Origin: Rhizophagus irregularis
Taxonomy: Eukaryota
Direction: 5' to 3'
Assembly (NCBI RefSeq): GCF_026210795.1
Contig: NC_089436.1
Span: forward strand, 2,170,001-2,234,000
DNA length: 64,000 bases
How positions within the stretch are numbered: position 1 is the first letter of the stretch; the number at the start of each line of letters is the position of its first letter. The notes beneath the pieces were generated by a model that saw only the letters and a program-made list of their open reading frames with translations, was not told where the DNA came from and searched no databases. A program made the translations under genes and the position numbers. Below, in pieces: positions 2,669 to 41,465 of the stretch.

Positions 2669-2961
2669 GGGTGCCGAGTTATTATTTGTTAAAGTTTTTA
2701 TATATAAATCGGCCAAAATTAAGGCTAATTCTGGTCAAATATTTTCGTAATACGAAATTAATTACGGAGTCCAAAATTAATTACGGAATATGGAGTTTTT
2801 CTAATGAATTACTTAATAATTACAGAATTACGTAATTATGTATTTCCCGTAATACTAAAATAATTTCGGACACAAGTATAGTAAAAAATGGCTCTTGCAA
2901 TCTGAAAGTATGGTTTTTATTTCATTCTCATTATCTATGACTAGAAAATGCTTTAGTCTAA

Positions 2962-3270
2962 CAGGACCCGAATAATACTAATATAACTCACAAGTAAACT
3001 TTAAGTACTGAAGTAAAAATACATTTTATGACATAACTCTGTCAATATTGAAGCTAGGAATTCGATTTTACTATTATTAGAATTCTCTCATCGAAACGAA
3101 TCTGATGATATAAATTTTATTAAAATTGAATCACTGGTTATGTTAAAAATAGGGGTATGTAGAATAACAAATTTTGAAAACATTTCTGTAATACGTAACT
3201 TTTGAAAAATTTTAATATAAACTCTACACAAACTCAAATGTGAGTTATATCAGTATTGTTCAGGATTCTG
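2962..3270. mobile_element. Non-autonomous TIR element with CAGG ends and 6-bp TSD (same family as 51072-51373)
   Basis: Ends CAGGACCCGAATAATACT / AGTATTGTTCAGGATTCTG; flanks GTCTAA/GTTTAA; reverse-complement similarity to 51072-51373. Confidence 0.75.
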
Positions 3271-8910: not shown

Positions 8911-9526
8911 TAGAGTTCCAAACAAGTTGACTAAATTCAGGTAATCTGACAGGTTGACCTGAATTTATCAGTTCAGGTTTAGCAATTGCAATTCAGCATC
9001 AGTTCAGGTTGTAACATCAATATGACCTGAATGACCTGTTGACCTGAAACTACTGATTCTATATAATAAAAATGAGTTGCGGTATTGGGATTCACTTTTT
9101 ACATTGATTTTATATAACAAAGGTGAGTTGCGGTATTGGGATTCACTTTTTTATATTGATTCTATATATATAAAGTGAATTGCGGTATTGGAATTCACTT
9201 TTTTATATTAATTCTATATATAAAAAGTGAATTCCAATACCGCAATTCACTTTTTATGTTGATTCTATAAAAAAAAGTGAGTTGCGGTATTGCGATTCAC
9301 CTTTTATATGATTTTAATATAAAAAAGTGAATCGCAATATTTCGAAAAAAAAATGTTTTGCACTATTTTTTTTTGATATTTTAATAAAAATTCTGAAAAT
9401 TTTCAGGTTTCAATTCAGGTCATGTTAAACAGGTAATCTGATATAACCTGACCTGTAAAAAAATTTCAGGTCAGGTTTATCAATTAACCTGACCTGACCT
9501 GATTTATTCGGAACTCTAAATCTCTA
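8911..9526. mobile_element. hAT MITE, family TAGAGTTCC (copy 1), with internal ~48-bp tandem palindromic repeats
   Basis: Ends TAGAGTTCC / GGAACTCTA (9518, followed by a short end duplication to 9526); GACCT subterminal repeats; TSD GATAGGAT/AATAGGAT. Confidence 0.8.
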
Positions 9527-11875
9527 AATAGGATAAATAATTTATAAATTAAATAAAAATATTATTTAATATATTTTTAGATCAGTTAAAATAATTTTAG
9601 CTTATTACTATATTAGAATATAATGTTAATAATAATATTTTACTTCTACAGTTCTACTTTTTGAAAAGAATTCTGAATTTATAATAATTGGAGTAAGATC
9701 TATAAAATTTGTCTTATTAACAATTATATAAATATAGTTTATAGTATTGAACTGAATAACTTTAAATTTAATTTTTATACTAGCAACAAAAGATATTAAA
9801 AAAGAATTCAATTTAACAGTGAGATTTAAATATTTATTAGAATTTTATTTACATTATGCAGAAGAAGGTTTCCTAGCTTTTGTATATACAGATAAAATGA
9901 TTATGGAAAACAATTTCTGGATTCTTAGTGGCAGGTCCATTAAATTTTTCAATCACTAATGGAAATATTTTTTTTTTTATATTATACTGTATATACATAA
10001 TTACTAATATCTTATATCTTTTAATGATGTAGGCATGTGATCGTAGAATAGAAATTACTAGGATTAGACAATAAAATAGAGATTTTTTTACTTACTACAG
10101 TATATTTCGTATTTAGGAATTACTCCTATTCGGACGATCGGATTAGATTAACTACCGAAATATTCGGAGCTCTTACTATAAGCATTGATTGTCCCTTTGC
10201 TCTGTAGTTTTCTAAAAGTAAGGGATAATGCAACGAATATAAAGTTCATTTCATAATGAATGACGATCTACTGATGATGATTAACGATGTAGTATAACAT
10301 TAATGAAAATGTTGTGCGAATTGTGCAAAGTATCATTAATTAGTAAGACTAATCTCGATGAAATTATGGTGTTCATTACCAAATAAGCCTTTTAGTATCT
10401 CTTTTACACAATTTATCGCTATAATATCTACAAATAATATGAAAGATTAAAATTATGATAATTCCACCCCCCTTTTCCTTTTTTAATAAAAGAAATATAA
10501 ACATATTTATGAACTTTATTTGGTATTTTTTTTTAATTGTTTTTCATAATCTATGAAATACGATTATACGAATATCATAGAAAAAATCATATGGTTCTCT
10601 TGCCATACAATAAAATATTATTTATTATATCTCGCATGCGCAAAATATAACTTTAATTCTTTCATATGCAAAATAAGAAATTTGAAATTCAATTATCATT
10701 TAAAAATAAATAACTGATCAAAAAAGCATATTATCCGTTCCGAAGACAAAGATTAATAATCATATGGAATATTTTTATATTAATTGTAACCGTTGTAACC
10801 TTATTCATATAAATAAAAATCCCTTGAAATGAAATGTTGTAATGCATAAATTATCAAATATTTATTCCTTTGCTTTGCGTAACGAAAAGAAATGTGTTTC
10901 TTATTCTTCACCAATTTAATAATGAAAAACAGGAACATGATTTCTAAAAATGGAAATTTTTGGCCGAACTTTTGATTTTTCTTTCTTGAAGAAATATTAT
11001 TTGCTTTTGCTTTTTATCTTTATAATATAAATACTGTAACATTAAAAAAAGGAGGAGTACGGTGACACCATATTCTTTTTTGATCTTTTGATCTTTTACC
11101 AATTTTAGAAAATTCATGGAAACTATACTTATCTGGGGGAAGGCTTTTAAAAGGTGTAACTGAAAGTTAAAATTCTATGAACTTCTTGGCATTTAGCTTT
11201 TTACTGCAGCAGGTTTTTTTTTTATAGTAAACTTTTAAACCTGTTGAAGTCTAATATTAAACTTTTTTTTGACTCCACATGCGTAAAATACGTAAACGTT
11301 ACAATTTCAAGTAGCTCATATTAGAAATCATGACTTCAGTCTTAATGTATACTAAATAATAATGATCATCCATTATTTGCTTTTTTTAAACTGTATTATT
11401 TTGAGGATTAAAAGTATTTATATAATTTAAAAATGGTTAAGTTCAAAATAAATTTTTCTATAAATTCCACCTACATTCCTGCATTTTTTTCTTTTCTTTT
11501 TTTTTTTAATCGAAAAATTTTCGCTTTTTTTTTTAGAATTTTTTTCTATTCACATAAAATTATAATTACTAATTTTTATTTTCACGGCTTATCTAAAAAT
11601 TTCACAGTATAAAAAAGGTAACTAATATAATAAATAATCAGCCAAATAAAATAAAATACACAACTGATGCAATGTTAATTCAAATATAACACCAAATGAA
11701 TTAAAACAACAATCGACAATTTTTTGTGATTATATAAATAAGTTTAATACGACCTTGAATCCTCTAATTTTATTTTATCTTTACATTAATTTCCTCTTTT
11801 TTTTTTCTTTTCCCTTTAATAAAAAGGCACATATTATCATATCATTAATACTATAAAATAAATAATACAACAAAA

Positions 11876-12757
11876 ATGACTCGTCTTTTAATATTAGCAA
11901 CAATTATTCTTTCCGTCATTTCATATGCGTCAGCCCGTAAGTATAAATTTTCTTTAAAAAATGTGATTGTTTAAACATTTGTCGATAATACTTATCGGAT
12001 TATATGTACACCATAAACGTTTTTTTCTAATTCATTAAATATATTTTCTCTTAATTTTAGAGATTGTTGATACACTTAATACACCCATTGGACCTGTCAC
12101 TCAAGGTGCAAAAGTAGCAGTTACATGGGCCCTTCTCCCTGGTGCTGATGCAGGTACCGCTACTGGGGACTTATCTGCTACAGATTCGGCCACCAAAAAT
12201 GTTTTATCAATTGATCCAGCAGTACCACTTGCACCCAAAACTTATTTGTGGAATGTTCAAGTACCTCCTGGAACTTATACTCTTGGACTTAATGATGGTT
12301 CCGGTCTCAAACAAAGTGGTGAAGTTGTTGTTAAAGCACCCGCCGGTGGAGCAGCTCCCGCTCCCGCCCCTGGTGGCGATGGAAAAACAGCTCCCGCTCC
12401 AGCTCCAGCTCCCGCTCCTCCCGCTAAAGGAGCTCCAGCTCCAGCTCCCGCTCCCGGTGATGGTAAAACAGCCGCTCCTTCCGCTCCTCCTGCTAAAGGA
12501 GCTCCAGCTCCCGCTCCTTCAGCAACTGGTGGCTCACCTTCCACACCTTCCACACCTACAGGGTATTTACATATATATTAATTTTCATTTTAATTTAAAT
12601 AATGTATTTAATGATATATTTATCTATTTTTTTTTTTTACAGAAATTCATCATCAACACCAGCTGCAGTATCAACGGGCTCAGCATCTTCAATTTTCCCA
12701 GGATTTGATGTTGTATTGAGTCTTTTGAGTGTTGCTGTCGCAATGTCACAATTTTAA
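11876..12757 (+). CDS. Secreted GPI-anchored Ala/Pro-rich cell-surface protein (AGL-like; N-terminal beta-rich domain resembling the Ser/Thr-rich GPI-anchored Kre9/Knh1-N family), 225 aa
   Basis: Exons 11876-11936, 12061-12562 and 12643-12757 total 678 nt, in frame, with GT-AG introns. Signal peptide MTRLLILATIILSVISYASA; domain with VTW...YLWNV...PGTYTL; APAP/GDGK/PAKG repeats; GPI-type tail STGSASSIFPGFDVVLSLLSVAVAMSQF. Confidence 0.9.
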
Positions 12758-15700
12758 ATTGGCAACAATTTAGTTCGAAATTATAAGGCTTTTTTACTCC
12801 ATTGTAGTCCGAAATCTTTATATATAGTGATGTTTAATTTTTTTTCAATTACAACCTTTAATATCTTAATAATATAAAAATTAGATTTTTTTTAATTAAT
12901 TATTTTTATGTTAATCAGAAGAAATATCCTTTTCTTTTTAACATTGTTAATCAAAATAATGAAATCGCGAATTTATAATGAACACTAAACTTTTATTTAA
13001 CTATTACAATCAATAAATTTATTCACCGTTCAAACGTCATAAAAAATTTCAAATAGACTGATTGTAATTATTTTAATATAATAAAATAAATCGAGGTTTT
13101 GCCATTACAATTTACAAGTAAAAACATTCATCTAATATCATAAAAGTATTATTATTACTATTATTAATTTCATGAGTATATTTATCCTAAAAAGTGACTT
13201 GCAGTGTATATGAAATAATTATAAAAGTAAAAATATTAACGTTGAAATAGAAAGCCAACTATATCCTGCCAAAAATTTTATTGGTTAAATTTTTGACTAT
13301 TTACCATCATATTAACTTTTATTATATATTTATATAAAATACAGCTCAAGCATACTAGTTGCATTAAGTCTTAAACCCTATTTTTAAATGGCCATAAAAT
13401 TTAAAAAAGAAATATTATTTTAAATACTTGTTATATCTTAATATATTAGTTATACTCAATTTATACCACATTTCTAATATGGCAAAATTATCAATAATTA
13501 ATATAATTATAAATATGCAATTAAATACAATTCTCTTTTAATTTCAGTTAATAAAAAATAGTAATAAACATATTTAAGTATCCAAAACAAATATTTAAAA
13601 AATAATTGGTTGTAATATAAAAAGTAAAGATAATGATTTAAAATACAGTATATTTCAAATTTTAATAATTTAAATGAAAATTTATATTTTTATTAATTTA
13701 CAAATCAACTTATTTATTATATAGTCAACTTTTTTTATAATTATTTCACTTATAATCACAATCATTTATAAATTTTAAATATTTCAAATTTTCATATAAA
13801 ATTTATTTTATATAGTTATATTAAAATTTTATATTAAAAAAGTATTGCATATATATAATTATATAGTTAACTAAATAATCAATATATAAATTTGTAATAA
13901 TAATTTTCATTAATAAGTTTAATAGTCATATAATTAATATTGAAATTATTAAAATTATTAGATTACTATAAATTTGAAAATGATTTGCATATATAAATCT
14001 ATAATTTTGCAAATAAAATTTATAAAATGCAAAATTATAAATCACTTCTAATCTAATAGTTAAATTTTAATAAAATTTATATTATTAAAATATGTTTTTA
14101 ATGCTAATTTGTGGTAAATTTTACCATATTTTTTTAAAATTATCTGAAACGTAACTGAAAATATCTTTAATTAAATATATTGTAATGTAAGTGTCTATTT
14201 GCATATATGATTAACTAATAAGATATATTATTGATTATGTATTAATTATTATATAATCAGAATTTTTAGTGATATGTCTAACATGTGATTAATATTTTTC
14301 ATTAAAATTTTAGTAATAAAAGTAATAAATTAAGCTTTTTTCTTAAAAGATTGTTAATTTTTTTGCAAAAAAAAATAAAATTATCTACAAATTTACAGAA
14401 TTAATGTTATATGTAAAATTAATATTACATAAATATTACATTTTGATTTAATATATTTAAATAAGTGTTTCAGATATTATAATAGTTTTTGTTACCTAAT
14501 TTATTATAATTTTAATATTTTAATATTATATAAAACTTTATAATAAATGCAATTTATTTAATTAAATGTATATTTATTATATTATATTTGAAATTTTATT
14601 ATAAATAAATAAAATTACATTTAAATTGATAAAACTTTATATTTGCCTTATTTTTTATATATTACTGCAGTTATATAATATCTATATAGTAAAAGATCTA
14701 TAAATAAAATAATTATAGTACATTTTGCCAAAAGCCATTTTGCTGAAAGAATATTTCACTGACAAATAGGACTAACATTATGCAGAATTATAAATAATTC
14801 AGGCTAGATATTATTTTTTAGCAAAATGGCTTTTAGTGAAATATTCTAATACTCTATAAAATTACCACTATTACTGATTTTAATTATATTAATATATATA
14901 CTGTACATTAATCAACATTGTTTTAAACATTTTTTTTAATAATAACTTTTTTATATAATAAACATTTGTACTATTATCTTAATATTTCATTAATATTTTA
15001 TATATTATTATTAATTTTACTAAAATTCTGAATATTTTTCAAATAATTCAGAGGTAATGTATAATAAAATGCATTTTTAGTATTAATTCAGTTAATATTA
15101 ATACTAAAAATATAATTTATTACTATTAGATTTATCATCAAGACAAAAAAATTAAATATGCAATTCTGATTAAAAGTAACATATAAGTTTTATATAAATT
15201 CTAAATCATATAAGTTATATAAGAAATATTTAAAGTTTTACTTCACTTGTAATTTTATATATCACTCTTTTATTATTTGATATTTCTATAGCATTTTTGA
15301 TACTTTTTTATATAGAGCATCTTGAATTTTAATAATATGAGTGAAAGTCTGTAATTTTATTAATTAAATATTATTGTAAGGAATAATATTGCTGCTTAAA
15401 ACTTATTTAATGATAAAATTCAAAAATCTGAAACTCAAAAACTTTATTTTTAATAAAAAAATTGGTAAATTCAAAATTTTTCTAAATTATAATTAGTTTG
15501 AAAAAATATAAAAACAGTTTTGGCAATTAAATTTATTATAAAAAATAGTTTTAGATTAAATTTTAACTAAACTAAAATTTTGAAAAAATAGTTTTGGCAA
15601 GTATCCTTAGGGAATAATTTCATTATTATTTTATTATTCTCATTATTTTTTATATTACTATTATGATTATTACAATTTTTTTTAAATAAAATAAAATCTT

Positions 15701-15879
15701 TTAATAATTAAATTAATTTATTATTACTATTAATTTTTAAAGTAATATTAATAGTTATTTTAGCAGTTAAAAATATTACTTTAAATTAGTTTCTTTAAAA
15801 AATTAATTACTAAACATTTTTTTTATAACTAGATTTTTGAATATATTTTAAACTTTAAAAAAGTAAAGTTGCTGAAAAA

Positions 15880-17570
15880 ACTAGAGAATTTCACTATCCA
15901 CGTCAGAACTAATATTCCTATAATTAAAGATAAAAAAATGTTTCATTAAAAACATTTTATTAAAAAATTTTGAAACTTTAATTTTAAAATTTACCTGAAA
16001 TATTTGCGTCCACGTTTGAGTTGATTTCCTATACAAAAATGAAAAAAAATGTTTTAATATTAAAAAACATTTTTTTTTATAAAGTTTCAAATTTTTTTTT
16101 TGAAATTTATCTGAAACATCGGTATCTATGCCGGAGCTGATTTTCTGCAAAAAAAAATAAAAAAAAAATGTTTTTTACGTTAAAAACATTTTTTTAAAAG
16201 AAAGTTTCGAAAGAGTTTTGAAACTTACTTAGAATATCGGTATCCACGCTGGAACTGATTTTTGTAAAAAAAAATAAAAAAGAAACGTTTTTTAGTTAAA
16301 AAAACATTTTTTTAAGAAAGTAAATTTTTCGAAACTTTACCTAGAGAAATAGTATCCATGCTGAAACTAATTTCCTAAACAAAAAATATTTAAAAAAACG
16401 TTTTTTAGTTATAAAACGTTTTTTTTTTAAGAAAGTTTCAAAACTTTTCAAAACTTTACCTAGGGAAACAGTAGAGCTCCAAATAGGTCAGCCAAATTCA
16501 GGTAACCTGACCTGACCTGACCTGAAATTCAGGTCAGGTATGAGATTTTTAAAAAAAATTCAGGCCAGGTATGAAGATTAACCTAACCTGATTGACCTGT
16601 TGACCTGAAACTATTGATTCTACTATATAATAAAAGTGAGTTGCAGTATTGCGATTCACTTTTTTATATTAATTTTATATAATAAAAGTGAGTTGCAGTA
16701 TTGCGATTCATTTTTTTATATAGATTCTATATAAAAAAAGTGAGTTGTGGTATTGCGACTCACTTTTATTATATAAAATCAATATAAAAAAGTGAATCAC
16801 AATACCACAACTCACTTTTTTTATATTAATTCTATATAAAAAAAGTGAATTGCAGTATTGGGATTCACTTTTTTATATGATTTAAATATAAAAATGTTGA
16901 ATCGCAATATTTCGAGAAAAAACGTTGCGAAAACGTTTTTTCATAATATTATATTAAAAAAATGGTTCATAACGTTTTTTTTGATATTTCAATAATAACG
17001 TTACGAAAATATTTTTTTCATAATATTATATTAAAAAAAACATTTTGCAATATTTTTTTCAATATTTTAATAAAAAACGTTGTAAAAACGTTTTTTTCAT
17101 AATATTATATTAAAAAAAAAAAAGTTTTGTACCATTTTTTTTCAATACTTTAATAAAAATAGTCCTGAAATTTTTCAGGTTTCAGGTCAGATCAGGTCAA
17201 ACAGACAACCTGATATAACCTGACCTGACCTGACCTGAAAAAAAATTTCAGGTCAGGTTTATCAATTAATCTGACTTGACCTGACACATTTGGAACTCTA
17301 AGAAATGGTATTCATGCCAGAACTAATTCCCTAAACAAAAAATATTATTAAAAAGACATTTTTTAGTAAAAAACGTTTTTTTTAAGATAGTTTTGAAATT
17401 TTTTTGAAACTTTACCTGGAATATCGGTATCCATGCTGAAACCGATTTCCTATATAAAAAATGTTAAAAAAAAAACATTTTTTAGTATTAAAAACGTTTT
17501 ATTAAAGAAAGTTTCAGAATTTTTTTTTGAAACTTTATCTGAAATATCAGTATCCACGTCAGAACCAATT
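15880..17570 (-). repeat. Tandem array (~8 units of ~115 bp) of intron/34-nt micro-exon modules
   Basis: Example on the - strand: tttatatag|GAAATCGGTTTCAGCATGGATACCGATATTCCAG|gtaaag (exon 17416-17449). Interrupted by a hAT MITE. Confidence 0.8.
16472..17300. mobile_element. hAT MITE, family TAGAGTTCC (copy 2, longer variant)
   Basis: Ends TAGAGCTCC / GGAACTCTA; TSD GGAAACAG/AGAAATGG (both derivable from GGAAACGG); inserted in a micro-exon. Confidence 0.8.
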
Positions 17571-18029
17571 AAACAAAAAAACTATTTTGAGAAAAAAAGA
17601 TTTTTTTTTTGAAATAGTTTAAACTATTATTAATAGTCTAAATTCAGTAATAGATCAACTAATTACTGTAGCTGCAGCTTAGTACATTATATGTTACTAA
17701 TCTGCTAAAATTTTGCCATTATTGATATTAATTAATTAAAAAATCGTTTAAAAATTGTCAAAAAAGTTTTTAAGTTAATTGTTTATTATTAATAAAAATC
17801 AATAAAAAAAATATTAGTTGATTTATGGTTTTTTTTATGTTACAACTCAACTAAAAATCAACCAAAAATCAACCAGTTGATTTATGCCAATTTTTTTCTA
17901 ATTTTTGTAATTAGCCGAATGTATGACGAATCATAGATTGATTTGCCGAATTGTTGCTGAAAGGTTTTATTGACGAAATAAATGATTTCGATCAGTAAAA
18001 CGTTAGTGAACATTCGTTTAAATAAAAAA

Positions 18030-19590
18030 GAAACCTAAAAATTTGAAGGTTTTAACTTTGATATAGGAGTCTGGAACTCAGTTTTAACTTCCTTTACTTA
18101 AAAAAAGAAATACAAATATTAGTTAACGTTCATCAATAAAATACTAAAAAAAAATAAATGTTCAAAGAGTTTTTACCTTTGATACGGAAGTCCAGAACTT
18201 GTTTTAGCTTCTTTTACCTAAAAAAAAGAGACAAAACATTAGAAATATTTTGTCAATAAATTAATTTAAAAAAAATCAATTTTTTGAAGGTTTGTTTTAC
18301 CTTCGATAGAAGTCCGTTACTTGTCTTTCAGCTTTCTTTACTTAAAAAAAAGATATAAAACGTTAAAAACATTTTGTCAATAAATTAATTAAAAAAAAAA
18401 CAATTTTTTGAAGGATTTTTACCTTTGATATGGAAGTCCAGAACTTGTTTTGGCTTTTTTTTATCTAAAAAAGAGAGACAAATATTAGAAACATTTTGTC
18501 AATAAATTAATTTAAAAAAAATTAATTTTTTCAAAGGGTTTTTACCTTCAATACGAAAGTCTAAAATTTGTTTTGACTTCCTTTACCTAAAAAAAAAGAG
18601 ACAAAACATTAGAAATGTTTCATCAATAAATTAATTTAAAAAAAATTAATTTTTTCAAAAGTTTGTTTTACCTTTAATGGAAGTTCATTATTTGTCTTTT
18701 GGCTTCCTTTGCCTAAAAAATAAGATGAAACATTAGTTAACATTCATCAATAATTAATTTAAAAAAACAATTTTTTAAAGGTTTTACCTTCAAAATTGAG
18801 TCTGGTGATATTCTGAACATACAAGAAAAAGAAATGAAATGTTGACATTTTGTTATATAAATAAAAAAAATCAATATTTTGAAGTTTTACTTTTGAAAAT
18901 AAGTCTGGAGCCTTACTTTGATGTTCAGGACCTAAAAACATGAAAAATGAACATTAGTTACATTTATTAAAATTATAATATAAAAAAAATTTGAAGGTTT
19001 TTACCTTCAAAAAAAATAAAGTCTGAAGCCTTACTTCAGCGTCTAGAACTTAAAAATATGGAAAACAAACTTTAGTGATATTCGTTAAATAAAAAATTAT
19101 TATTATTTTTTTTTAAATAAATTAAAGATTCAGAAGTTAATATACCACTAATATACCTTTGAATTTCAAAATCATTGATAGGTTTCATCCAGAACCTATA
19201 TAATATAAAAAAAAATTATAGTTTTTTTTAAAAAAATAAATTAATATTCAGAAGTAAGCATATCTTTGAATTCCAAAATCATTGATAGCTCCATCTGGAA
19301 CCTATATAATATAAAAAAAAATTATATTTTTTTTTAAAAAATAAATTAAGATTCAGAGGTAAATATACCTCTAAATTCCAAACTAAACATTAATAGGTTC
19401 CATTCAGAACCTATATAATAAAAAAATTATATATTTTTTTAATAAATTACTAATATTCAGAGGTAAGTATACCTCTGAATTCCAAATAAAATCATCAATA
19501 GGTTTTATCTGAAATCTATATAATATTAAAAAAAATTATTTTTTTTTTTAAAAAATAAATTATAATAAGATTTGGAAGTAAGCATACCAG
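18030..19590 (-). repeat. Tandem arrays (~13 units of ~120 bp, two sub-families) of intron/micro-exon modules
   Basis: Example: ctaatgttttgtctcttttttttag|GTAAAAGAAGCTAAAACAAGTTCTGGACTTCCGTATCAAAG|gtaaaa (41-nt exon 18177-18217). A second unit type occupies 19120-19590. Confidence 0.8.
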
Positions 19591-19866
19591 GACCCTGAAC
19601 ATTACTAAAACAACTCAAATTCCATGTAACTAAAATTTTAAAATGCGATATCTCAGTTAATATTATACCTCAAAAGACGAATTATATATCAAAATGTTCG
19701 TTTCAATAAGACGAATCTAACAAGCCAAAGATCATTAAAATCCAATCACTAGATCCCAAATTTGAAGCTAAAATCTACATATAACTTTATATATTTGAAA
19801 CAGAAATTAATTATAAGGTTTATACAAATTTAAATCCAAGTTTTTTTAGTAATGTTCAGGGTTCTA
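19588..19866. mobile_element. CAGG-ended MITE carrying the palindromic module
   Basis: TIR CAGGACCCTGAACATTACTAAAA / TTTTAGTAATGTTCAGGGTTCTA; no TSD recognisable. Confidence 0.7.
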
Positions 19867-20875: not shown

Positions 20876-21395
20876 ATCAGGAAATTTGTTTAGGCGTAAT
20901 TTAGTGTAATATTTCGAAGGTAGTGTAAAATTTCGAAATATTACACTAAAAACGTAATATTACAAAAGTTTACGCTCTTAAATTTGAATAATTATAGTAA
21001 TTTAAGAATATCTCGCTATCTACTGATCCAATCAAGACGATCTATAGCTCATTGGAATCAGCTCATCAAGACGGATCGAATGGTAGTAAAATCGCATTTC
21101 TACAGTTGATAGAACGCTCTATAGTATGCAGTAAAGTTTTAAATTAATAGAAAGTCATCTATCAAACATAAAGATACGATTTTACTACCATTCGATTCGT
21201 CTTGATGAGCTGATTCCAATGAGCTATAGATCGTCTTGATTGGATCAGTAGATAGTGAGATATTCTTAAATTACTATAATTATTCAAATTTAAAAGCGTA
21301 AACTTTTGTAATATTACGTTTTTAGTGTAATATTTTGAAATTTTACACCACCTTCGAAATATTACACTAAATTACGCCTAAACAAATTTCCTGAT
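20876..21395. mobile_element. Fold-back MITE with ~220-bp TIRs, each containing the palindromic module
   Basis: ATCAGGAAATTTGTTTAGGCG...CGCCTAAACAAATTTCCTGAT; flanks CAAT/GAAT; removing it restores the MULE frame (INNTIVRKRTFEC). Confidence 0.9.
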
Positions 21396-21441
21396 GAATA
21401 CTATAGTGAGAAAAAGAACCTTTGAATGTTTTCATTCACAT

Positions 21442-22081
21442 TGTTATCCTGTCAACGATTAAAGCCGACTGAAAAACTTTAACGCTTTAACAGGTTAACT
21501 GGAGTTTAACTTAATAGGAGAGTCTTAAATTGATCACGAATAATCACGTGAAATAACGTTGGATGTTCAGTTAAAGAAAATAGGTTTTTATTAAAATAAT
21601 GTAAGATTTTAGATACGACGAAAAATATAGATAATCTCTTAGTTGCGAAATTAACTATCTTGAATTATACTACTGGGAATAATACTCTTTTCGTATAACT
21701 TGAAAACTACAATATAATTCTTAACTAACTAACTGACCTTCCCTTACTTGGTAAAATCCTATCACTATTTATAATAAAATAAAAATCAAGAATATTTGAT
21801 AAAATAAATAAATCAAATATAATAAATAAATAAAATAAATAAAATAAAATAAATAAATAAGATAAAATAAATATATCAAATAAATAAAATATAACAAATA
21901 AAATAAATAAAATTAATAAAATAAATAAATCAAATATATCAAATTTATCAGATTTATTAGATTTATCAAATAAATCAAGAAAATCAAGAAAATCAAGAAA
22001 ATCGAAAAAATCAAGGGATCTACGAAATGATCTACAAAATTGATCTACATAAAATTACTGCGCCACATTTCTATTTTAACA
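21442..22081 (-). mobile_element. Solo LTR of the Gypsy family at 27051-36487
   Basis: TGTTATCC...TTTTAACA; near-identical to both LTRs of the full element; 4-bp TSD ACAT. Confidence 0.95.
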
Positions 22082-22095
22082 ACATCTATATAAAC

Positions 22096-22339
22096 TAAGG
22101 TTGCTTGTCTAAACCTCTTCAAAATCCTACGATTAGTTTCGTCAAAATTTTACTATAGATTTATTATAGTTTTGGCAGAGTTTCAGCAGTTTTGGCATTT
22201 ATAATAAGTTTCGGCAGTTTCGCCTTTCTCCAAAGTTTCGCCAGTTTTTTAATATAACTTTAATATAGTTTTGGCAGAATTTCGCTTTTCGGCGAAACGC
22301 CATCTTGCCTAAACCCCTAAGTTTCGGCAAGCAACCTTA
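22096..22339. mobile_element. hAT MITE, family TAAGGTTGC (copy 1, 244 bp)
   Basis: TIR TAAGGTTGCTTG; 8-bp TSD ATATAAAC. Confidence 0.92.
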
Positions 22340-25300: not shown

Positions 25301-27050
25301 GTAAATTTTTAGAAAGGGTGATTTAACCTGGATGATTTAACCCAGAGGGAGGGAAGGGAGGACAAGTTAGCAAAACTCAATAAATAAATAAAAATTATCT
25401 TAATAATTTTAATGTAATTAAGTGTAATACTACATTATTTAGTATAATTGCAGTATTTTTTAGTGCAATACCATATAATCTAGTATAGTGCTACATTTTT
25501 TAGTGTAATTTAATGTAATGTACATTAGTCAAAATAGGACAATTCAGCCTAAATTTAATTAGGTCGAATATAGCTAGGTCAAATGATGATCTAACTTGTG
25601 TCAAATTGAAGTCAAATTTTTGGGCATATTTAAGGTGCCAATCATCTTATATTCAGAAAGGATATTTGACTAACATTAGACCTTAATTTTACTATCATTT
25701 AACTAGAATTAATAATTTATTAGTAATTTATTAGACTTGAATTTTAAGCCAAATTATAGACTATTGGTAGTAAATTTTTTACTGAAATGTTTCCGAATTT
25801 ATTCATTTTATTAAATATTTACATTATATTACAAATTATGCTATCTATTTTAATTCTAATCTATTTGCAAAATTCACCAGAAATTGTTCAACAAAAGAGC
25901 TGATTTTTTTTACAAAAAAGAAAATAATGTTAAAAAAAAGTATTAAATAGTGTTTTGAAGAAAATTTTAAAACTTACCTGTATTCATTAAATATTCCAGA
26001 TTCGGCTATCTAAGGAACTGATATCTATAAAAAAAAATAAAATTTTAAAAAAATAAATTAAAAAAAAAATGAAAGTTTCAAAATTTCAAATTAAAACTTA
26101 CTATATCGGTATATTCGAAGTCCTAAAGCTGAAAGAATCAATACATATAAAAAAAAGAAAAAAATTAAAAAAAAATAAAAAATAAAAAAACGTAAGTTTT
26201 GCTTCGAAACTTATCAAATTCAAATTTCAAAGTTAGTGTCAGCGCTCTACAAAAAAATATGAAAAGAAATGTTAATTCGTTTTTCATATTTAAAATAAAA
26301 AAATTCTCTTCCTCCATCCTCTTTCCCCATTTCTTATCTTAAAGTCCAGTTTTGTGTTCAAGTTGGCATCCTCTTACGCATCCTACAAAAAAAGTAATGA
26401 AAAAAACATAAGTTCATTTTATAAATTAAAGAAACCTCTTCTTTCCCTGTTTCTTACCTAAAGTCCAGTTTTGTGACCAATCTGGTGCTTTACAAAAGAA
26501 AAACAATGAAAAAGAAATGTTAATATGTTTCTTAAATTAAAAAAAAAATAAAATAAATTTTAAAAAGTTTTGAAGCAAAGTTTTGCTTTGAAACTTACCA
26601 ATTCATTCTAAAGTTCAATGTTGAAGGAACTGGATACCTATAAAAAAAAATAAAATTAAAAAAAATAAACTAAAAAAAATTATTATATTAGTTTCAAATA
26701 AAAACTTACCATATTGGCATAATAATAAAAAAACCAAGATTCATACTTATGAATCTTAGTTCTTTTTCAAAAGCTCCAAAAGCTAAAAAAAGAAAGAATA
26801 GTTATTAGTAACCATTTATAATATTAAAAAAAAATAAAAAAATAAAACCAAGATTCCTTATTTACGAACCTTCAGTTTTTTCCCATTTTTCTAAACATGG
26901 AAACCCGCTCAAACTCAAAAAAAAGAAAAGAACAGTTATTAGTAACTGTTCGTAATATTCAAAAAAATAAGAAAAAAAAATTAAGATTTGTATATACAAA
27001 TCTTTGGTTTTTTCCTGTTCTTCTGAACACAAAAGCACATCCAAACCTAT

Positions 27051-27679
27051 TGTTATCCTGTCAACAATTAAAGCCGACTGAAAAACTTTAATGCTTTAAC
27101 AGGTTAACTGGAGTTTAACTTAATAGGAGAATCTTAAGTTGATCACAAATAATCACGTGAAATAACGTTGGATGTTCAGTTAAAGAAAATAGGTTTTTAT
27201 TAAAATAATGTAAGATTTTGGATACGATGAAAATATAGATAATCTCTTGGTTACGAAATTAACTATCTTGAATTATATTACTGGGAATAATACTCTTTTC
27301 ATATAACTCGAAAACTACAATATGATTCTTAACTATCTGACTGACCTTTCCTTCTTGGTAAAATCTTATTACTATTTATAATAAAATAAAAATCAAGAAT
27401 ATTTGATAAAATAAATAAAACAAATATAATAAATAAATAAAATAAATAAAATAAAATAAATAAATAAGATAAAATAAATATATCAAATAAATAAAATATA
27501 ACAAATAAAATAAATAAAATTAATAAAATAAATAAATCAAATATATCAAATTTATCAGATTTATCAGATTTATCAAATAAATCAAGAAAATCAAGAAAAT
27601 CGAAAAAATCAAGGGATCTATGAAATGATCTACAAAATTGATCTACATAAAACTACTGCGCCACATTTCTATTTTAACA
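27051..27679 (-). repeat. 3' LTR
   Basis: Direct repeat of 35860-36487; adjacent to the PPT. Confidence 0.97.
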
Positions 27680-27691
27680 CTTCCCCCCCTT
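27680..27691 (-). other. Polypurine tract
   Basis: AAGGGGGGGAAG immediately upstream of the 3' LTR on the - strand. Confidence 0.9.
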
Positions 27692-27714
27692 AAAGAACGA
27701 ACTCTTGTGAGTCT

Positions 27715-28101
27715 TTAAATTTCCAATACCAATTGCTTAATTTCGTTTTATTTTAAAGATCTTATCAAATTAACAGTAGTATTAACGGTACAATAAATCT
27801 GAGTAGGACTTGTTTCAAAAATATAATAAACATGAACAGAAATCCAATAATAATGTTCTGAAACTATTTGTCTAACTTGCTTCTTTGTTAATTCTTTTTG
27901 TTCAATAAGCTGTCCTAAGAAATATGCGAAAACTAGAGCTGGAATTCTTTGTTTTAATCGTTATGCTCGTAACAAACATCGGTAAGTCATATGAATTTTT
28001 GTTTTATCATCTATTTCTTCTGAATAAGGTTCGTCTTGTAATTTGTGAGAACTATTTCCTTCAATTAATAGGTCTTGTAACACAATTTCGTAAGGCATCA
28101 T
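27715..28101 (-). pseudogene. Gypsy accessory ORF (sense, 128 codons) just upstream of the PPT
   Basis: MMPYEIVLQDL...ALVFAYFLGQLIE...ISVHVYYIFETSPTQIY...LIRSLK*NEIKQLVLEI; two in-frame TAA codons consistent with CAA>TAA. Confidence 0.7.
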
Positions 28102-28542
28102 GATGAGAAAAAGTGAATCATAACAAAATAGAACACGTCTTTAAATAAGAATTTCATTGTCGCACTTAATTAATTAATATTATTAATGATCAACTACTAA
28201 TTTCGGTAGATCGTGACATTATTGTTTCACTAATTTAGTTTGATTGACTTTACTCCTTAAATTAGTTAATCGCGTATTACTATTTTGAAACATTTCTCCT
28301 TGTTCTAAAAATAACTTTTCTTCTCCTTAATTATTTCCACGTGTAATAATTATCAGCTGTCACTGAATTTTTCGCGTCATTTTTGTTATTTCGTCTAGAG
28401 CATATTTTCTCGCATCATGTCTTTTTCTTATTTAAGAACCTAATTTTTCCTTTTCCCTTGTTCTTCACTTCTTGCAAAATCTTTTTGCATATATCACCTT
28501 TATTAAAATTTACATATTTTTCCTAATATTCTTATTATTAAA

Positions 28543-29345
28543 ATGGGCTGCCATTGATCAAAAACATTTCAAAAAAAATCACAAGCTCGCTTTAAGGTCC
28601 TAAAGGCTGCTCGTAAATCACAACTTCGTCAACTTGAGGGTGAGTATTGCACACAAGGTTCTTAAAATGTTTCTTAAACGGGGATAGTCTGCAGACAGGG
28701 TACTTGTACCTCTAGGATATTTAGTCTTGAATGGACTCCCCTATAGAACTTTTCTGGGCTATCGATTTATTCACTTAGTCTTTGACTAACTTGATGTTTC
28801 TACTTTCCCATTTAATAACACAAGATCAAGTTCAAACGTTACAATCTAAAAATGATTCCTTACAAGCTGAAAATAATTCATTACAAGAAGAAATTATGAC
28901 CCTAACAGAGTTTGGTATTTTGCAGTCCAGGCAAATCCATCATTGAGAAGAAAATGCGCAATCTAATAACGAACTGTGGGCTGTCGTCCAAAAGGAATGT
29001 TGGGAGGCCCAGAAAAAGGTTATTCAACAAGATGAAGAAATTGTCGGTTTAAAGAACGAAGTAAAACAACTGAAGAGGGAAAATAAAAGCACTACGTATA
29101 GTACAAAATATTTTGAAACTAAATATTATCATGCAATGAGTGTTATACACAAATATGGTATAATTGTTATTGACGATAATATGCCCAAGTTTCCTTCATT
29201 TGTACCTTCATCTTCATCTTCATCTTTTTCCTCTTCTTCTTACGATCAAATATTTGTTGCTAATGGTCCTGATTATATTAATGATAATAATGATAATAAT
29301 AATGATGATAATAACGTTGATAATAATATCAATAATGAACAATAA
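28543..29345 (+). pseudogene. Gypsy accessory ORF (antisense to gag-pol), coiled-coil with Ser/Asn/Asp-rich tail
   Basis: Basic N-terminus from ATG 28543; possible GTGAGT intron from ~28640; long frame QVQTLQSKNDSLQAENNSLQEEI...EEIVGLKNEVKQLKREN running into ORF 29136-29345; TGA stops consistent with CGA>TGA. Confidence 0.6.
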
Positions 29346-32267
29346 TAATTTTCTTATTCTTAATAAAATTTTTGTACTATTTTCAAACTATGACTATTGG
29401 TTCCAATTTTCGCTCGTAATATTTCTTAAGCCTATTCCCATGAATTACGTGTTTAACTAATTTTTCATCTAAATTTCTAAGTTTATAAACATTATCATTA
29501 AGTACTTCATAAATGAAATAAGGACCTATCCACTTATTTTCTAATTTTGCCGAGAAATTATTTTTAAGCCACGTTCGTTCTACTAAAACTTGATCTCCTA
29601 TTTTCAATTTTTCTGAAATTCCTCATTGATCATATACTTGTTTTTGCTTTGCCTGTTCATTTTCAATTCTTAACGAAATATCATTTTGTTCTTCTTTTAA
29701 TTTGACTATCAATTGATAAATTCGTCTTTGCATTGGATCCTTTTCATTTTGAGGTATTTGTGATGGAATTTTTAAATCAATTGGTAAAGTTGCTTTTCGT
29801 TCATAAGTTAAATAGAATGGTGTTTTTTCCGTAGTGTTATATTTTTTCGTTCGATATGCCAAAAGTACTGCATCGATTAATTGATCCCATTTTTTATTAT
29901 TATCTTGAACTAATTTTGCTATACATTCACCAATTGTCCGATTAAATCTTTCAACCATTCCATTTGTTTGAGGTCTATAAGCTGAGGTAAGGTGATGCTT
30001 AGTTTGATAATTTTCGCATAATTCATCAATTAATTTATTCATAAATGATGTTCCTCTATCTGATAGAATTTCTTGTGAAACTCCATGTCTACAAATAATT
30101 TCTTCATAAATAAATTTAGCTACTGTTTCTGCTTTAATATTGGATATCGCTCTTGCTTCTGGCCATTTTGTAAAATAATCCATGGCGACAATAATATATC
30201 TATTTCCACTACTGGTGATTGGTAATGGTCCTTTAATGTCAATTCCTATTCTGTGAAATGGTCCTTTAACTGGTATTGGTATCAATTCTTCTCGCCAATT
30301 GGTAGGTCCTCTTCTTTGACAAATATCACAAGTTTTTATATATTCTTTTACATCTCCTAATTGTGACCAATAATATCGATCTTTGATTTTTCCAATTATA
30401 ACGTCTATTCGCACCGCTTATATCTGTATGAAAGTGATATAAAATAGGTTCTACTTGTTCGTGTAGAATTACTTTTCTTATACCATTCTTTGTTTTTCTA
30501 AATAAAATATTGTTTTGATAAATATATTGGGTTGAGTTTTTCCGAATTTGGGTTTTCCGTTTATCACTCAGTTATACCATCCATAAAAGTGAAAGTTATT
30601 AAAAATAAAATTAATTCGTTATATAGTCATTCATCCATAATCGTTATATGAGGTTAAAGGGTTGGTGTGATTATTAGTTGAGGTTGAGTCAAGACGAGAG
30701 AATGCATCAGCATTCGCATGTTTAGTTCCTTTTCAATATACAATGTCATATTTATATTCTGATAAGGCAATCTTCCATCTTTCCAATCTTTTATTATTAT
30801 TTTCCGTTGTTGAATTTAGTAACCACTTGAGTGCTGCATGGTCAGTGATGATGGTGAATTTACTTCCATAAAGATAATGTCAAAAATATTTAACTGCCCA
30901 TACAATCGCAAGGCATTCCAATTCTGTGATGGCATAATTCTTTTCCGCCAGTATTAAAGTTTGACTAGCATAGGCAATCACATACTCTTGATCATCAGTT
31001 TTCTGTGCAAGTACTGCACCTAACCCTATAATTGAAGCATCGGTATATAAAAAGAAAGGCTTTAAAAAATCTGGGTATTGTACAATCGGTGCTGTTGTTA
31101 ATTTATCTCTTAAATCCTCAAATGCTTTCTGTTGTAAATTCGTCCATTCATAAGGTGCATCCTTTTTTAATAATTTGTACATTGGATCAGCAACTTTAGT
31201 AAAATCTTTGATGAAGTGTCAATAATAAGAGAATAATCCTAGGACTCCGCGTAATTCTCTAATATTTTGAGACTCTGGGTAATTAACCATTTTATTGACT
31301 TTTTCTGGATCAGGTTTAACACCTTCTTTTCCTACAACATGTCCTAAAAATTGAAGTTCAAGTACTGCAAAATGACATTTCTCTGCTTTTAATCTTAGAT
31401 TCGCCTTACGAATTCTATTTAAAACTTCTTCCAAATGTTGAATATGATCTTTAAAAGTTTTTGAATATATAATGACATCGTCAAGATAAACTAAAATGAA
31501 CTTCTCCTTTATTCCATGTAAAACTTTATCCATAGTTTGCTGAAATGTCGCAGGTGCATTGCAAAGTCCAAAAGGCATAACTTTGAATTTATATGTTCCA
31601 AATTTGGTGATAAAGGCTGTTTTTTCCTGGTCTTCTGCCCTTACTTTTATTTGCCAATACCCTGATGCTAAATCTAAAGTGGTGAACCACTGTGCATCTT
31701 GTAGAGAATCTAATAATTCATCAATTCTTGGAAGCGGGTAATTATCCTTTTTGTAATATCGTTAAGAGCTTTATAATTAACGCAAAACCTAAGTTTTCCA
31801 TTCTTCTTTTTCACTACTACTACTGGAAATGACCATGGACTAGTTAATGGTTCTATTAGCCCTTGTTCTAACATGTCATTAATTTCACTCTCAATAAATT
31901 CATTTTCCTTTGGTGCTGTCCTATAGGCTCATTTTTTGATAGGTGGCACTTCTTCAGTGATAAATGATAATAATATGTTCCCCTTCTGGAGTTTGTTTTA
32001 ACTCTTGCAATGATTTAGCGAATAAGTCTTTATTTTTATCTAGTAATTGATGGAGTGATTGATATTGACTTTCCTCTAATTCTTCAATCGGAATAACTTT
32101 TTCTGGTTCTAATTGAATATTAGATACATTCGGACTTTCTGATTCTTGCATCACGTGATAAATGTTCCAATTTTCTTGAATGATTTGACAATTATTACAA
32201 ACTTCTCGATCTCCTAGGGTTTTACATAGGCATTTTCCTGGCCCTTTACTATTAATTACGCCAGTAC

Positions 32268-32399
32268 TAAAGATGTTAGCCGTAATTCAAAAAAGTGTCG
32301 TAATACAAAATTTTTATATGCCGTAATTAATTAAGGCTATAAAAATCTTATAGCCGTAATTCAAAATTTTTTAAAAAATAATTAAGGCTAACATCTTTA
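32268..32399. mobile_element. hAT MITE (132 bp) in pol
   Basis: TIR TAAAGATGTTAGCC; TSD GCCAGTAC/ACCAGTAC. Confidence 0.85.
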
Positions 32400-33493
32400 A
32401 CCAGTACTATTGTGACTTTGTTGCTTAATATATTTCAAATACCCTGGGTGATATTCTCGATCATTGATTTGAAAAGTACTTTTGGTTATTTCTGTCTTAT
32501 AAAATAGAACTGCTATGGTGTCTTCTAACTCATCTTCTAATTCTAGTTCATCTACTGGGTCAATGACTGTATATTTTGTTGGGTCCAATTTTTGAGAACA
32601 TGTGACAGAAATTTGTTGTTAGATTCCTTCATATTTAATGGTGATGGTATTCTGTCCATAATCAATGTTTGCATTAACCGTCTTCAACCATTCGTTACCA
32701 AGCAGAACATTATATTCAGCTTAATTCGTAACTATCATATTAATATATATAGACTTTAATATCTCTCATTTGCACTGGAACTTGCTGAACCATTCCTAAT
32801 GGTGATGATTTTTGTCCTGTTACATCGATGATTTTAATATTTGTAGGTAATTCAATTCCTTTATTGACTTTATCTAGGAATCTTTTAGAAATAATACAAC
32901 CTACAGCTCCTGAATCTATTAAGACATTAACAGGCTGTCCATATACAATCGCTTCTCCATACAAAGCTTCTTCAGCTCTTTCTTTTTGATTAAGATATGC
33001 TGGTTCTTCTCTAATCAATTGGTTAAGAATATTAGTATAATAATTAACTAGTGTTGGGGTTAATTCATTATGTTTCGCCATAAATTGGAATTGTTCAAAA
33101 GAAGTAATTGTCCAAGCTCCTTGTTTTTCAGGTTCAGTTCGCTGTAACTCTTGATAATCAGGTACTTTCGTTAAGTAAATATCACAATTAAAAGCTGGAT
33201 CGTTAAATAAAAATACACATTCATCTTTTTTAATATCTAGCGCTGTTTCTTCTTTTGTTTCTCTAAGCACAGCTTGAAAAGAAGATTCACAATTTTCTAC
33301 TTTTCCTCCTGCTACTTGCCATAAATTATACATTGTTTTATTTTTCTGTAGTCGTTTCGATAAATAAATTCCAAAGTTATTATATAAAATATTGAGAACA
33401 TATGTAGGTCTTTTTAATAGTTGAATAGGCTTTTCAATAGGTCTGATTTCTTCTAATAAGTCCTTCCAATTCACTCTTTTAGTACTAATTTCG

Positions 33494-33552
33494 TTAGAGG
33501 GTTTTCTAAAATTCGCACTCTTCCTCTCCAGAGGTGCGCTTAGTAGTTTAAA
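33494..33552 (-). promoter_or_regulatory. -1 programmed ribosomal frameshift signal (U UUA AAC plus predicted pseudoknot)
   Basis: gag ends CGT TTA AAC TAC TAA. The -1 frame is open into the NUDIX/PR ORF. Stem CGCAC/GUGCG starts 7 nt downstream and its loop (AGAGG) is complementary to a downstream CCUCU. Confidence 0.85.
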
Positions 33553-35813: not shown

Positions 35814-35838
35814 TCACGGTTACTATTTTTCTTTAGGT

Positions 35839-36487: not shown

Positions 36488-36644
36488 CTATAAAAAAAGA
36501 AAGAACAGTTAGTAAACCATTCATATATTAAAAAAAACAAAAAAAAAACAAGATTTGTATTTACGAATCTTGATTTCTTGGTTTTCCTTTCTTCGTAGTT
36601 CCTTACTGCATTCTAAAAAAGAAGTTAACGGTTCGTTTATAATA

Positions 36645-39685: not shown

Positions 39686-40387
39686 TATTAAAAAAAATAA
39701 AAAAATTAAACCAAGATTTATACTTATTTACGAATCTTAGTTTCTTGGTTTTCCATTTTTCAAAAGTCTACCCGATCTTAAAAAAAAGAAAAAAACGGTT
39801 ATTAGTAACCGTTTATTAATATTAAAAAAAAATAAAAAAATTAAACCAAGATTCGTAGTTACTTATGAATCTTGGTTCCACTTTTTTCAAAGATCGGAAG
39901 CTCACCCAATCCTAAAAAATGGTTATTAGTAACTGTTCATTAATATTAAAAAAAATAAATTAAATTAAATCAAGATTCATAATTATTTACGAATCTTGGT
40001 TCCACTTTTTCCAAATATTAAAAGCCTACTGAAACCTAAAAAATAAAAAAGAATGGTTATTAGTAACCATTCATTAATATTAAAAAAAAATAAAAAAAAT
40101 TAAATTAAAATTCATAGTTACTTACGAATCTTAGTTTTTTTGTTCTTTGGAACTTGAAAGCCCGTTCATACCTAAAAAAAAGAAAAGAATGGTTATTAGT
40201 AATCATTCGTAATATTTTTTTTTTTTAAAAAAAAATTAAACCAAGATTCGTAGTTACTTATAAATCTTGGTTCCACTTTTTCTAAAGATTAGACGCCCAC
40301 CTGAAATCTAAAAAATAGAAAAGAATGGTTATTAGTAACTGTTCATAAAAAAAACCAAAAAAAAACCAAGATTTGTACTCATACTTA

Positions 40388-40666
40388 AGTTGTTCTAACT
40401 TGATTATTTGTTTAACGACCTCTATCTTCTTCTATTTTTTAAAAAATTTGAGATCTAATAAACACATATTATTAAATACCCCCTCTATTTTTAAAAAAAT
40501 TTAAAAGCAAATAAACATATAGTGATAAATATTCCCTTTAAATTTTGCCTGAAATTTTCAAATTTTCTTATATTTATTTATTTAGTTTGTTTAACTTAAG
40601 CCCCCCTCCCCTCTTAATTTTTTTAAAAGATCTGAACGTTAAACAAACAATTAAATTGGAACAGCC
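40388..40666. mobile_element. PIF/Harbinger-like MITE
   Basis: Degenerate ~30-bp TIR (GGCTGTTCCAATTTAATTGTTTGTTTAACG); 3-bp TSD TTA. Confidence 0.7.
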
Positions 40667-41465
40667 TTATGAATCTTGATTTTCTGTTTGTCAGAAGTCC
40701 ACCTGAACCTATAAAAAAAAGAAAGAAACAGTTAGTAAACCATTCCATAATAATAAAAAAGAAAAAAAAAATTTAAGATTTGTAATATTATACTTACAAA
40801 TCTTAAAAGTACTCCTTTTTCTGTTTCCATTTCCTTTCATTTTCCCCTTTTGTTTTACCCTTTCCTTTTGTTTTCCCTTTCCATTTTTCCAAAACCTATA
40901 AAAAAAAACAAGAATGGTTAGTAACCATTTCATAATATTAAAAAAAACTACTAAGATTTTACTTACAAATCTTAGTTTTTTATTATTATGAAGCTTATTT
41001 CATCTGGCAATACCTGCAAGAAAAAGAAAAAAAAGAAATATTAAAACATTCCTAAAGTAAAAAAAAATGACTTTTCCTTCCCATTTACCTTATTATCTAA
41101 AGTCTAATACGTAGTTTCGATCAGCATTCCTATAAAATTACTATGAAAAGGGAAAGGGCCACATTAAAATTTTTTAAAAAAAATAATAAATTTTTTTTTG
41201 TTTTTTCTTTTTCAAATGCTAGTCTAAAGGATGAGAAAAAGAAGGAATAAAAGTTTAAAAAAGAATGCATAAGATTTTTTTTAAACTTTTGATATGTGTA
41301 ATGTGTGACGTGACTATTCGACCAGTATGGTTAATTATTCGACCAATGTCTAATTGTAGATCATTGCTAATTAAGATCAAATTTTTAATTTTAGTCAAAT
41401 ATAGGCCAAATTTTACTAATGCCAAATATTTCTTTTTTGACTAGTAATATTTGAGATGCCCGTAC

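Follow-up and report, generated by a model that had tools for sequence, protein, structure and literature searches.

Tandem chains of intron-like and micro-exon-like units in Rhizophagus irregularis: probable decaying, non-coding members of a dispersed repeat family

Is a stretch of DNA that is laid out like a densely spliced gene, with short exon-like blocks alternating with short intron-like stretches, actually spliced, and if not, how did it come by that layout? The question is raised by a locus of the arbuscular mycorrhizal (AM) fungus Rhizophagus irregularis, examined here within a window of 64,000 nucleotides (nt) (NCBI RefSeq assembly GCF_026210795.1, contig NC_089436.1, positions 2,170,001 to 2,234,000 of the forward strand; coordinates below are those of the window). 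An earlier note, made from the sequence alone, described positions 15880 to 19590 as a heavily spliced non-coding transcript built by tandem amplification of exon-intron units, possibly a transposable element (TE) device that mimics intron-rich host genes, with splice signals maintained by selection. The reading favored here, at a probability of roughly 55%, is that the locus carries a near-silent, decaying, non-coding chain of introns and micro-exons that is likely a dead copy of a dispersed Glomeraceae family with a likely spliced ancestor.

The minus strand of 15881-19515 carries 20 whole units, each an intron plus an exon-like block, that fall into three families (4 A, 9 B, and 7 C), in addition to a C unit (C3) interrupted by an insertion and a fifth A unit truncated at 19587. 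The earlier count of about 20 units therefore stands, while the accompanying unit size of 115-125 bp does not, with periods of 105-109 bp in A, 109-126 bp in B, and 111-122 bp in C. The layout runs from an A/T-rich intron-like stretch through a pyrimidine tract and an AG to a block of 33-45 nt and a GT, and the blocks have 26-44% GC versus 10-19% GC for the short introns, which are 62-108 nt long. A generic motif scan (pyrimidine tract, AG, a 25-60 nt block with at least 25% GC, GTA) returned 14 matches on the minus strand and none on the other, compared with a mean of 0.19 and a maximum of 2 across 300 dinucleotide shuffles. It should be noted that the 14 matches are repeat copies and hence non-independent. 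In their exon blocks, the three families are mutually unrelated (mean alignment z of at most 1.0 between families, 9.6-12.9 within them), confirming that three different unit sequences share one architecture and one strand. Within each family, the exons have a mean identity of 67-80% (71-80% in A, B, and C) and were copied together with the intron, and same-family copies lie head to tail in arrays detected by Tandem Repeats Finder (periods 105, 124, 117-123, and 136), which supports tandem amplification of exon-intron units as had been suggested. Moreover, a hybrid intron joins A to B, indicating that the two were once one chain.

The layout is less uniform than described, in that the AG is intact in 14 of the 20 units, the GT in 16, and both in 11, while the CTAAY branch motif occurs in 6 of the 20 (B 6/9, A 0/4, C 0/7). 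Two exons predicted in the earlier note, 17416-17449 and 18177-18217, were placed exactly, but regarding the region as a pure array was an overstatement since it also contains an 829-bp insertion (16472-17300) and a 485-bp spacer that is not composed of units. Minor (U12-type) introns have an RTATCCTT donor and a CCTTAAC branch near the acceptor. When inspected by eye, donors at the locus read GTAAA, GTAAG, or GTATR-, and the minor-intron branch motif was not found.

A second chain, missed by the earlier note, lies at 25.9-41.1 kb and consists of 20 units of like layout on the minus strand (families D and E), such that the two chains together hold approximately 40 units, all on one strand. The D units show GTAAGT donors and TACTAAT branch motifs, and the E units are single-copy yet have the same layout; both chains terminate in a C-like block. 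The second chain is interrupted by a Gypsy-type long terminal repeat (LTR) element that, together with its ATAG target duplication, sits exactly at an acceptor, and the pieces at 36.5 and 27.0 kb were therefore formerly contiguous. A common ancestor of A through D, sought via a shared exon start, was not supported by exon alignments. Upstream of the second chain (41310-41160, minus strand), inspection by eye showed a GTCACGTCAC motif and, after it, a pyrimidine-rich stretch; together they might represent a promoter and first exon.

The chains are non-coding. When the 20 A-C blocks are joined computationally, each frame contains 13-17 stops and the longest open run is 69 codons; the corresponding limit is 66 codons if just the 11 units with both splice sites intact are used, and 75 codons for the joined D-E blocks. 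The modal block lengths of 41 nt (B, 6/9) and 34 nt (C, 5/7) shift the frame at each unit, in agreement with the earlier observation that no open reading frame (ORF) emerges, and 10 of 40 blocks across the window are multiples of three. A TAA occupies letters 2-4 in 5 of the 6 blocks B3-B8 and, because 41-nt exons pass through all three phases, one of which is blocked by the TAA, a stop is unavoidable in the B chain. Unspliced, intron-containing translations matched no protein, nor did Atlas provide a usable match, although this is a weak test. Additionally, Rfam yielded 0 matches at gathering score in the window, and no transposase or helicase frame was found inside the chains.

The first array is also near silent in polyA RNA. 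In polyA runs X21 and X22, a neighboring gene at 11.5-13.0 kb reaches a depth of approximately 800, and three GT-AG joints in it are each supported by 162-250 reads; the 4.1-kb array stretch has 6, 12, 8, and 7 wholly placed reads in four RNA runs. The four RNA runs represent at most three samples from two studies, are unstranded and of unstated tissue, and may come from a strain that lacks the locus. A further run, X1, covers introns without the joints of the neighboring gene and was treated as DNA. Approximately 1000 reads per RNA run touch the array, but nearly all fit in part only, mostly via A/T tracts. No minus-strand GT-AG joint was detected on the array, where exons are short and diverged, among the 15 joints listed of 39, and a further comparison gave no array exon-exon joint among the 15 listed of 378. 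Exon position 17439 is covered by 1 read in X22 and 0 in X21, and an A4-like exon by 0, 0, 4, and 8 reads in the four runs. Reads resembling the B1 donor (2-9) are equally numerous at the final base of the exon and within the intron, which fits unspliced RNA. RNA peaks at 16149-16285, 19207-19242, and 19523-19560 were considered as expression and rejected as A/T-tract cross-mapping of reads with loose ends from other loci. Taken together, the wholly placed reads (6-12 per run) and the joints listed count against a heavily spliced transcript.

The copies in the window drift, and their splice signals are not retained above background. A splice-site G was lost in 5 of 30 cases versus 41 of 195 for the majority G/C of the exons in A-C (Fisher p=0.81), and with five D units added the values are 8/40 and 61/275 (p=0.84). 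This small sample of window copies comprised the 15 best-aligned of the 20 A-C units (B0-B2, C1, and C8 were left out) and 5 of the 13 D units. Selection on splice signals, for which the earlier note had argued, is thus not evident among these copies. That note had itself named a lack of spliced reads and of signal conservation as results that would tell against it, and both lean that way, within limits set by the joints listed, the strain, and the use of window copies. Among 112 departures from the family majority, G>A (38) and C>T (19) are the commonest, and decay is in excess at CpG (77/171 versus 240/672). The donor G of D units lies in a CpG, and donor-sparing C>T and donor-killing G>A changes are each seen in 4 of 12 units.

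Sequence comparisons indicate that the chain belongs to a dispersed repeat family with copies at other loci. Single-copy pieces lie at a depth of 35-45 in DNA run X15, whereas summed depth at exon positions is approximately 430-1640 in C and 7519 in A; summed contig depth is not equivalent to copy number. The A exon position is represented by 23 contigs in X15 versus 4 A units in the window. At exon positions 16017, 16114, 16229, 17439, and 19185, the majority of the X15 depth carries G/C where the window has A/T, and the same is true of the broken donor at 17538; contigs with the other letter number 8-26 at each such position. Because the X15 majority restores G/C across many contigs, the window copy is the decayed one and further copies exist. 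The majority letters restore a CpG at 19176 and 19191 only. A scan of metagenomes with the D motif, which lies inside the exon, returned 15 matches, of which 14 are chance and 1, on contig L003, is a true relative. This contig carries three unspliced D-type units (blocks of 35, 49, and approximately 30 nt) with 3/3 AG and 3/3 GT intact. The A motif gave 0 matches in metagenomes, the D motif 4 matches in prokaryote genomes (all chance), and the C and B motifs 1 chance match and 0 matches, respectively, in viral contigs. No common termini or target-site signature enclosing the first chain was seen at the one locus compared, both ends of which may be truncated. A single-copy contig piece spans its 3' flank (15572-15959), and its 5' limit is set by a 279-bp element distinct from it, beyond which no continuation of the array was found. 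The suggestion of a TE device that mimics host genes accordingly has no support at this locus. As a separate observation, the CpG observed/expected ratio is 0.98 in 15881-19600, 1.41 in 39690-40350, and 2.02 in L003 (680-1053), with host coding DNA at 0.47-0.59; the counts are small.

A feature of the units that the earlier note had missed is the presence of hairpins over the splice signals. All 15 perfect short-loop hairpins inside units (stem of at least 7 bp with at least 2 G-C pairs) lie on a splice signal: the donor in 8 cases, the branch site in 5 (where CTAA falls in or at the loop), and the acceptor in 2. Relative to flank-shuffled controls, z is below -2 for donors in D 11/13, A 2/4, B 3/9, C 0/7, and E 1/7, for branch regions in D 7/13, C 5/7, B 3/9, A 0/4, and E 0/7, and for acceptors in A 3/4 and other families 4/36, while background windows reach this value in 4/60 cases and host donors in 0/3. 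Copies within a family are non-independent, and the enrichment thus amounts to about seven family-by-site events. Covariation in ten D units is not above that in shuffles (36-126 of 500 reach the observed value), with 89.5% of cells pairing, and the hairpin of D13 is fully compensated, yet its donor is dead. L003 retains both hairpins besides all of its splice sites. The 829-bp element inserted in C3 contains palindromic 52-bp and 39-bp minisatellites without splice signals, which suggests that this genome may form hairpin repeats at the DNA level. Non-symmetric splice motifs at the centers of palindromes may remain because they were once constrained, and an origin of the palindromes at the DNA level would still imply a spliced ancestor rather than a selected RNA structure. 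The CpGs of units often fall within hairpin stems.

Table 1. Units, hairpins, and inserted elements of the two chains (window coordinates; a dot marks features given no strand).
Feature	Position	Strand	Remarks
Family A	19157..19587	-	4 whole units; of a fifth, truncated at 19587, the intron remains; period 105-109
A blocks	19515-19473, 19410-19369, 19301-19264, 19195-19157	-	43, 42, 38, 39 nt
Family B	18057..19156	-	9 units; CTAAY in 6; 4 acceptors broken
B blocks	19049-19005, 18931-18891, 18822-18788, 18712-18672, 18586-18546, 18464-18423, 18341-18301, 18217-18177, 18097-18057	-	6/9 are 41 nt
Spacer between B8 and C1, 485 bp	17572..18056	.	in order: a further B-type intron (branch motif present), multi-copy unrelated DNA, broken C1 intron end
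Family C	15881..17571	-	7 whole units and split C3; 5/7 blocks 34 nt
C blocks	17571-17539, 17449-17416, 16374-16341, 16262-16229, 16144-16111, 16028-15995, 15917-15881	-	
C3 split block	17330-17301 and 16471-16460	-	34 nt once insertion subtracted
829-bp non-coding element, terminal inverted repeats	16472..17300	.	inside exon C3; decayed 8-bp target duplication
279-bp element, 19-bp terminal inverted repeats	19588..19866	.	truncates A array; 5' boundary
Donor hairpin A1	19455..19480	-	perfect 11-bp stem, 4-nt loop, GT within stem
Donor hairpin B0	18990..19011	-	perfect 9-bp stem, 4-nt loop, GT within stem
Acceptor hairpin A2	19393..19414	-	perfect 8-bp stem including AG
Branch-region hairpin C4	16392..16425	-	perfect 13-bp stem, CTAA in loop
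D1-D9	39732..41129	-	period 124-136; donor and branch hairpins; small insertion right after D4 donor
D10 and its intron	36488..36612 (D10 block 36612-36565)	-	stops at acceptor AG, Gypsy insertion point
D11-D13, then 7 varied E units (30-50 nt)	25878..27050 (D part 27046-26751)	-	last E resembles family C
Gypsy-type LTR element	27049-36487		LTRs 97-98% identical; target duplication ATAG; pol frames broken

How such chains could have arisen can be outlined as follows. The starting point may have been a spliced transcription unit with several exons, either non-coding or an orphan. Unequal crossing-over or slippage between similar neighboring A/T-tract introns, possibly assisted by short palindromes, could then have enlarged it, and exchange between such introns would explain why exactly one intron and one exon are copied per step. 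Segments A, B, C, and D would have been amplified separately, and unrelated units would as a result share an architecture without each copy having been selected for it. Whole chains or parts of them would later have spread to many loci, to be followed by silencing, loss of G/C to A/T, and insertion of Gypsy elements and of elements like miniature inverted-repeat transposable elements. That the ancestral units were once spliced is a fair deduction from the motifs, and the reading as a whole is also supported by the strand-specific layout, which exceeds chance, and by the intact sites of L003. Several points weigh against it. The spliced ancestor is deduced from motifs, with no spliced read seen from any copy. 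The CpG excess is modest and does not demonstrate methylation-driven decay. Hairpins centered on splice signals in four unrelated families are more than neutral duplication alone would explain. Lastly, the comparison is confined to copies in the window, the sequencing runs, and metagenome contigs.

Four other explanations were weighed. One is that living relatives elsewhere produce non-coding RNAs (ncRNAs) in which hairpins cage or present the splice signals and make splicing slow or conditional, the present locus being a dead copy; such splicing would stall spliceosomes and feed RNA interference (RNAi) or would yield a regulated multi-exon RNA. The confinement of all 15 perfect in-unit hairpins to splice signals, their like placement in A, B, C, and D despite differing sequence, and the persistence of both hairpins and all splice sites in L003 are in its favor, as are statements in the accessible text of two papers that stalled spliceosomes trigger small interfering RNA in Cryptococcus neoformans (PMC6643885, citing Dumesic et al. 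2013) and that 41% of R. irregularis small-RNA loci derive from unannotated regions (PMC8647823). However, covariation in the D units is not significant, near-consensus exons such as 17439 and A4 draw almost no RNA, the reads resembling the B1 donor fit unspliced RNA, and the metagenome matches to the D motif led to one genomic contig and to no spliced one, such that this explanation is considered possible but unlikely. The same tentative standing is given to the wider idea that AM fungi carry high-copy, non-coding micro-exon chains as part of their unclassified repeats, with donor, branch, and acceptor each enclosed in hairpins that evolved in parallel in unrelated families, and with live copies that either stall spliceosomes and thereby feed RNAi or behave as selfish elements coupled to splicing.

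The remaining three explanations are less probable again. The chains might have been carried, dispersed, and amplified in tandem by a non-autonomous transposon, either through Helitron-like capture of gene pieces from one strand or within a derivative of a CACTA/Plavaka or Crypton element, as could be suggested by the dispersed copies, the placement of approximately 40 units on one strand, the patchwork of unrelated modules, the transposon-dense window, and the finding, in the accessible text of PMC11075540, that two-thirds of R. irregularis repeats are unclassified. This is improbable given that no shared termini or target duplication were seen, that the chain is bounded by a separate element on one side and single-copy DNA on the other, and that the chains lack a transposase or helicase frame. 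It is slightly more improbable that the chains are relics of micro-exon repeat-protein genes, now pseudogenes. Although the blocks are GC-richer than the introns, certain single blocks are stop-free, and suitable lengths are found in A4 (39 nt) and in a number of blocks of D (45 or 48 nt), the 41- and 34-nt modes break the frame, TAA recurs in B3-B8, few blocks are multiples of three, the blocks of L003 mix phases, and the unspliced translations, weak as that test is, gave no protein match; for B and C, this explanation is largely refuted. Least probable is that the units are palindrome-rich minisatellites that were never spliced and whose splice-like motifs are incidental. The lack of any spliced read and the palindromic minisatellites without splice signals in the same region accord with it, but it would leave unexplained a tract-AG-block-GT order with 62-108 nt gaps that recurs on a single strand in five unit types of unrelated sequence, the GTAAGT donors and TACTAAT branches of D, the hybrid A/B intron, and single-copy E units that are built alike. 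A decaying dead copy of a dispersed family with a likely spliced ancestor is thus the explanation retained.

The surroundings of the chains are 15-39% GC and transposon-dense, with MULE, Gypsy, and Tc5 remains and many small inverted-repeat elements. Insertions interrupt exon C3, the site directly after donor D4, and acceptor D11. Relatives of the 829-bp element occur at 8911-9340 and 41466-41900, all three copies holding palindromic 52-bp minisatellites, and the family is very abundant, with summed depth of up to 55,000 in X15. Related ends of the 279-bp element are found at approximately 2960-3270 and 51070-51360; positions 19602-19760, tried as a shared first exon of the array, were rejected as belonging to this separate inverted-repeat element. 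The Gypsy element has a NUDIX domain directly before its protease, and a solo LTR lies at approximately 21440-22080. A fold-back element at 20876-21395 has 251-nt arms that are 93% complementary and 18 nt apart, and a 245-bp repeat is present in two copies that are 95% identical (22095-22339 and 34871-35115, the latter inside the Gypsy element). The protein encoded by the highly expressed neighboring gene (11538-12983, plus strand; introns 11618-11826, 11937-12060, and 12563-12642) is small, begins with a signal-peptide-like sequence, contains Pro/Ala/Gly repeats with DGK, and ends in a hydrophobic stretch. It is similar to the AGL cell-surface proteins of Glomeromycotina as presented in the accessible text of PMC8786786 but differs from Rhizophagus AGLs in having three introns versus the one stated there and a non-repetitive N-terminal domain, and may belong to the chimeric class. 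A poly-Q, BTB-like protein encoded at 58245-59228 (minus strand) is conserved across Glomeromycotina, and its best relatives, in Funneliformis and Glomus cerebriforme (75% for the latter), place the host in the Glomeraceae. Open frames of 150-223 amino acids that overlap one another at 45.5-47.5 kb (plus strand, 35-39% GC) have no Pfam match and are possibly a frameshifted gene.

Through the chains, one class of unclassified Rhizophagus repeats acquires a defined structure by which it can be counted across the genome. Even if they are junk, they matter for annotation, because gene predictors would tend to read them as multi-exon protein genes that do not exist. If hairpins prove to be selected in live copies, they would constitute a new kind of structured, intron-dense ncRNA and allow a direct test of splicing-coupled genome defense in an early-diverging fungus. 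According to the accessible text of the respective papers, the R. irregularis genome contains 24% uncharacterized repeats and many methylated, high-copy orphan genes (PMC8647823), and a curated repeat library for the species omits repeats that lack transposon domains (PMC11075540). The unclassified repeats and orphan genes so described are, like the chains, multi-copy, domain-free, located in a transposon-rich compartment, and near silent, and the chain family probably belongs among them. Published repeat libraries may hold its units as "unknown" consensus sequences. An exon-intron chain or hairpin architecture is not described in the accessible text of either paper, with neither "exon" nor "intron" appearing in that of PMC11075540 and "intron" absent from that of PMC8647823, nor are such chains described in that of 10.1101/2022.10.19.511543, PMC13465315, or PMC10639083. 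More generally, no description of such arrays was found in a literature search whose scope excluded supplements, repeat libraries, and most subscription papers.

Among known systems, several share individual traits with the chains. In the micro-exon genes (MEGs) of Schistosoma, exons are symmetric multiples of three and encode secreted proteins. The chains resemble these genes, and tandem exon duplication in general, in their runs of short exons, similar introns, and local duplication, but differ in their modal lengths of 41 and 34 nt, the lack of an ORF, and the lack of visible expression; the symmetric exons and long ORF of a micro-exon or repeat-protein gene are not found here, where a quarter of the blocks (10/40) are multiples of three. 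Introner elements likewise consist of repeated introns of similar sequence but insert alone into unrelated genes, whereas the chains copy exon plus intron in tandem in non-coding DNA. Helitron and Pack-type transposons can carry same-strand exon-intron patchworks in many copies with tandem amplification; in contrast, no element ends were found for the chains, and their pieces match no known gene. The Glomhopper CryptonA elements of Glomeromycota, as portrayed in the accessible text of PMC13465315, are intron-rich, reside in the repeat compartment, and come from the same fungal group, but are defined by a DUF3504 recombinase and have intron positions that are not tandemly repeated; no DUF3504 frame was present among 18 window ORFs scanned. 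The RNAi triggered by stalled spliceosomes in Cryptococcus offers a functional analogy only, as it could provide a route for handling poorly spliced, intron-rich repeat transcripts, and hairpin-covered donors would be poor splicing substrates.

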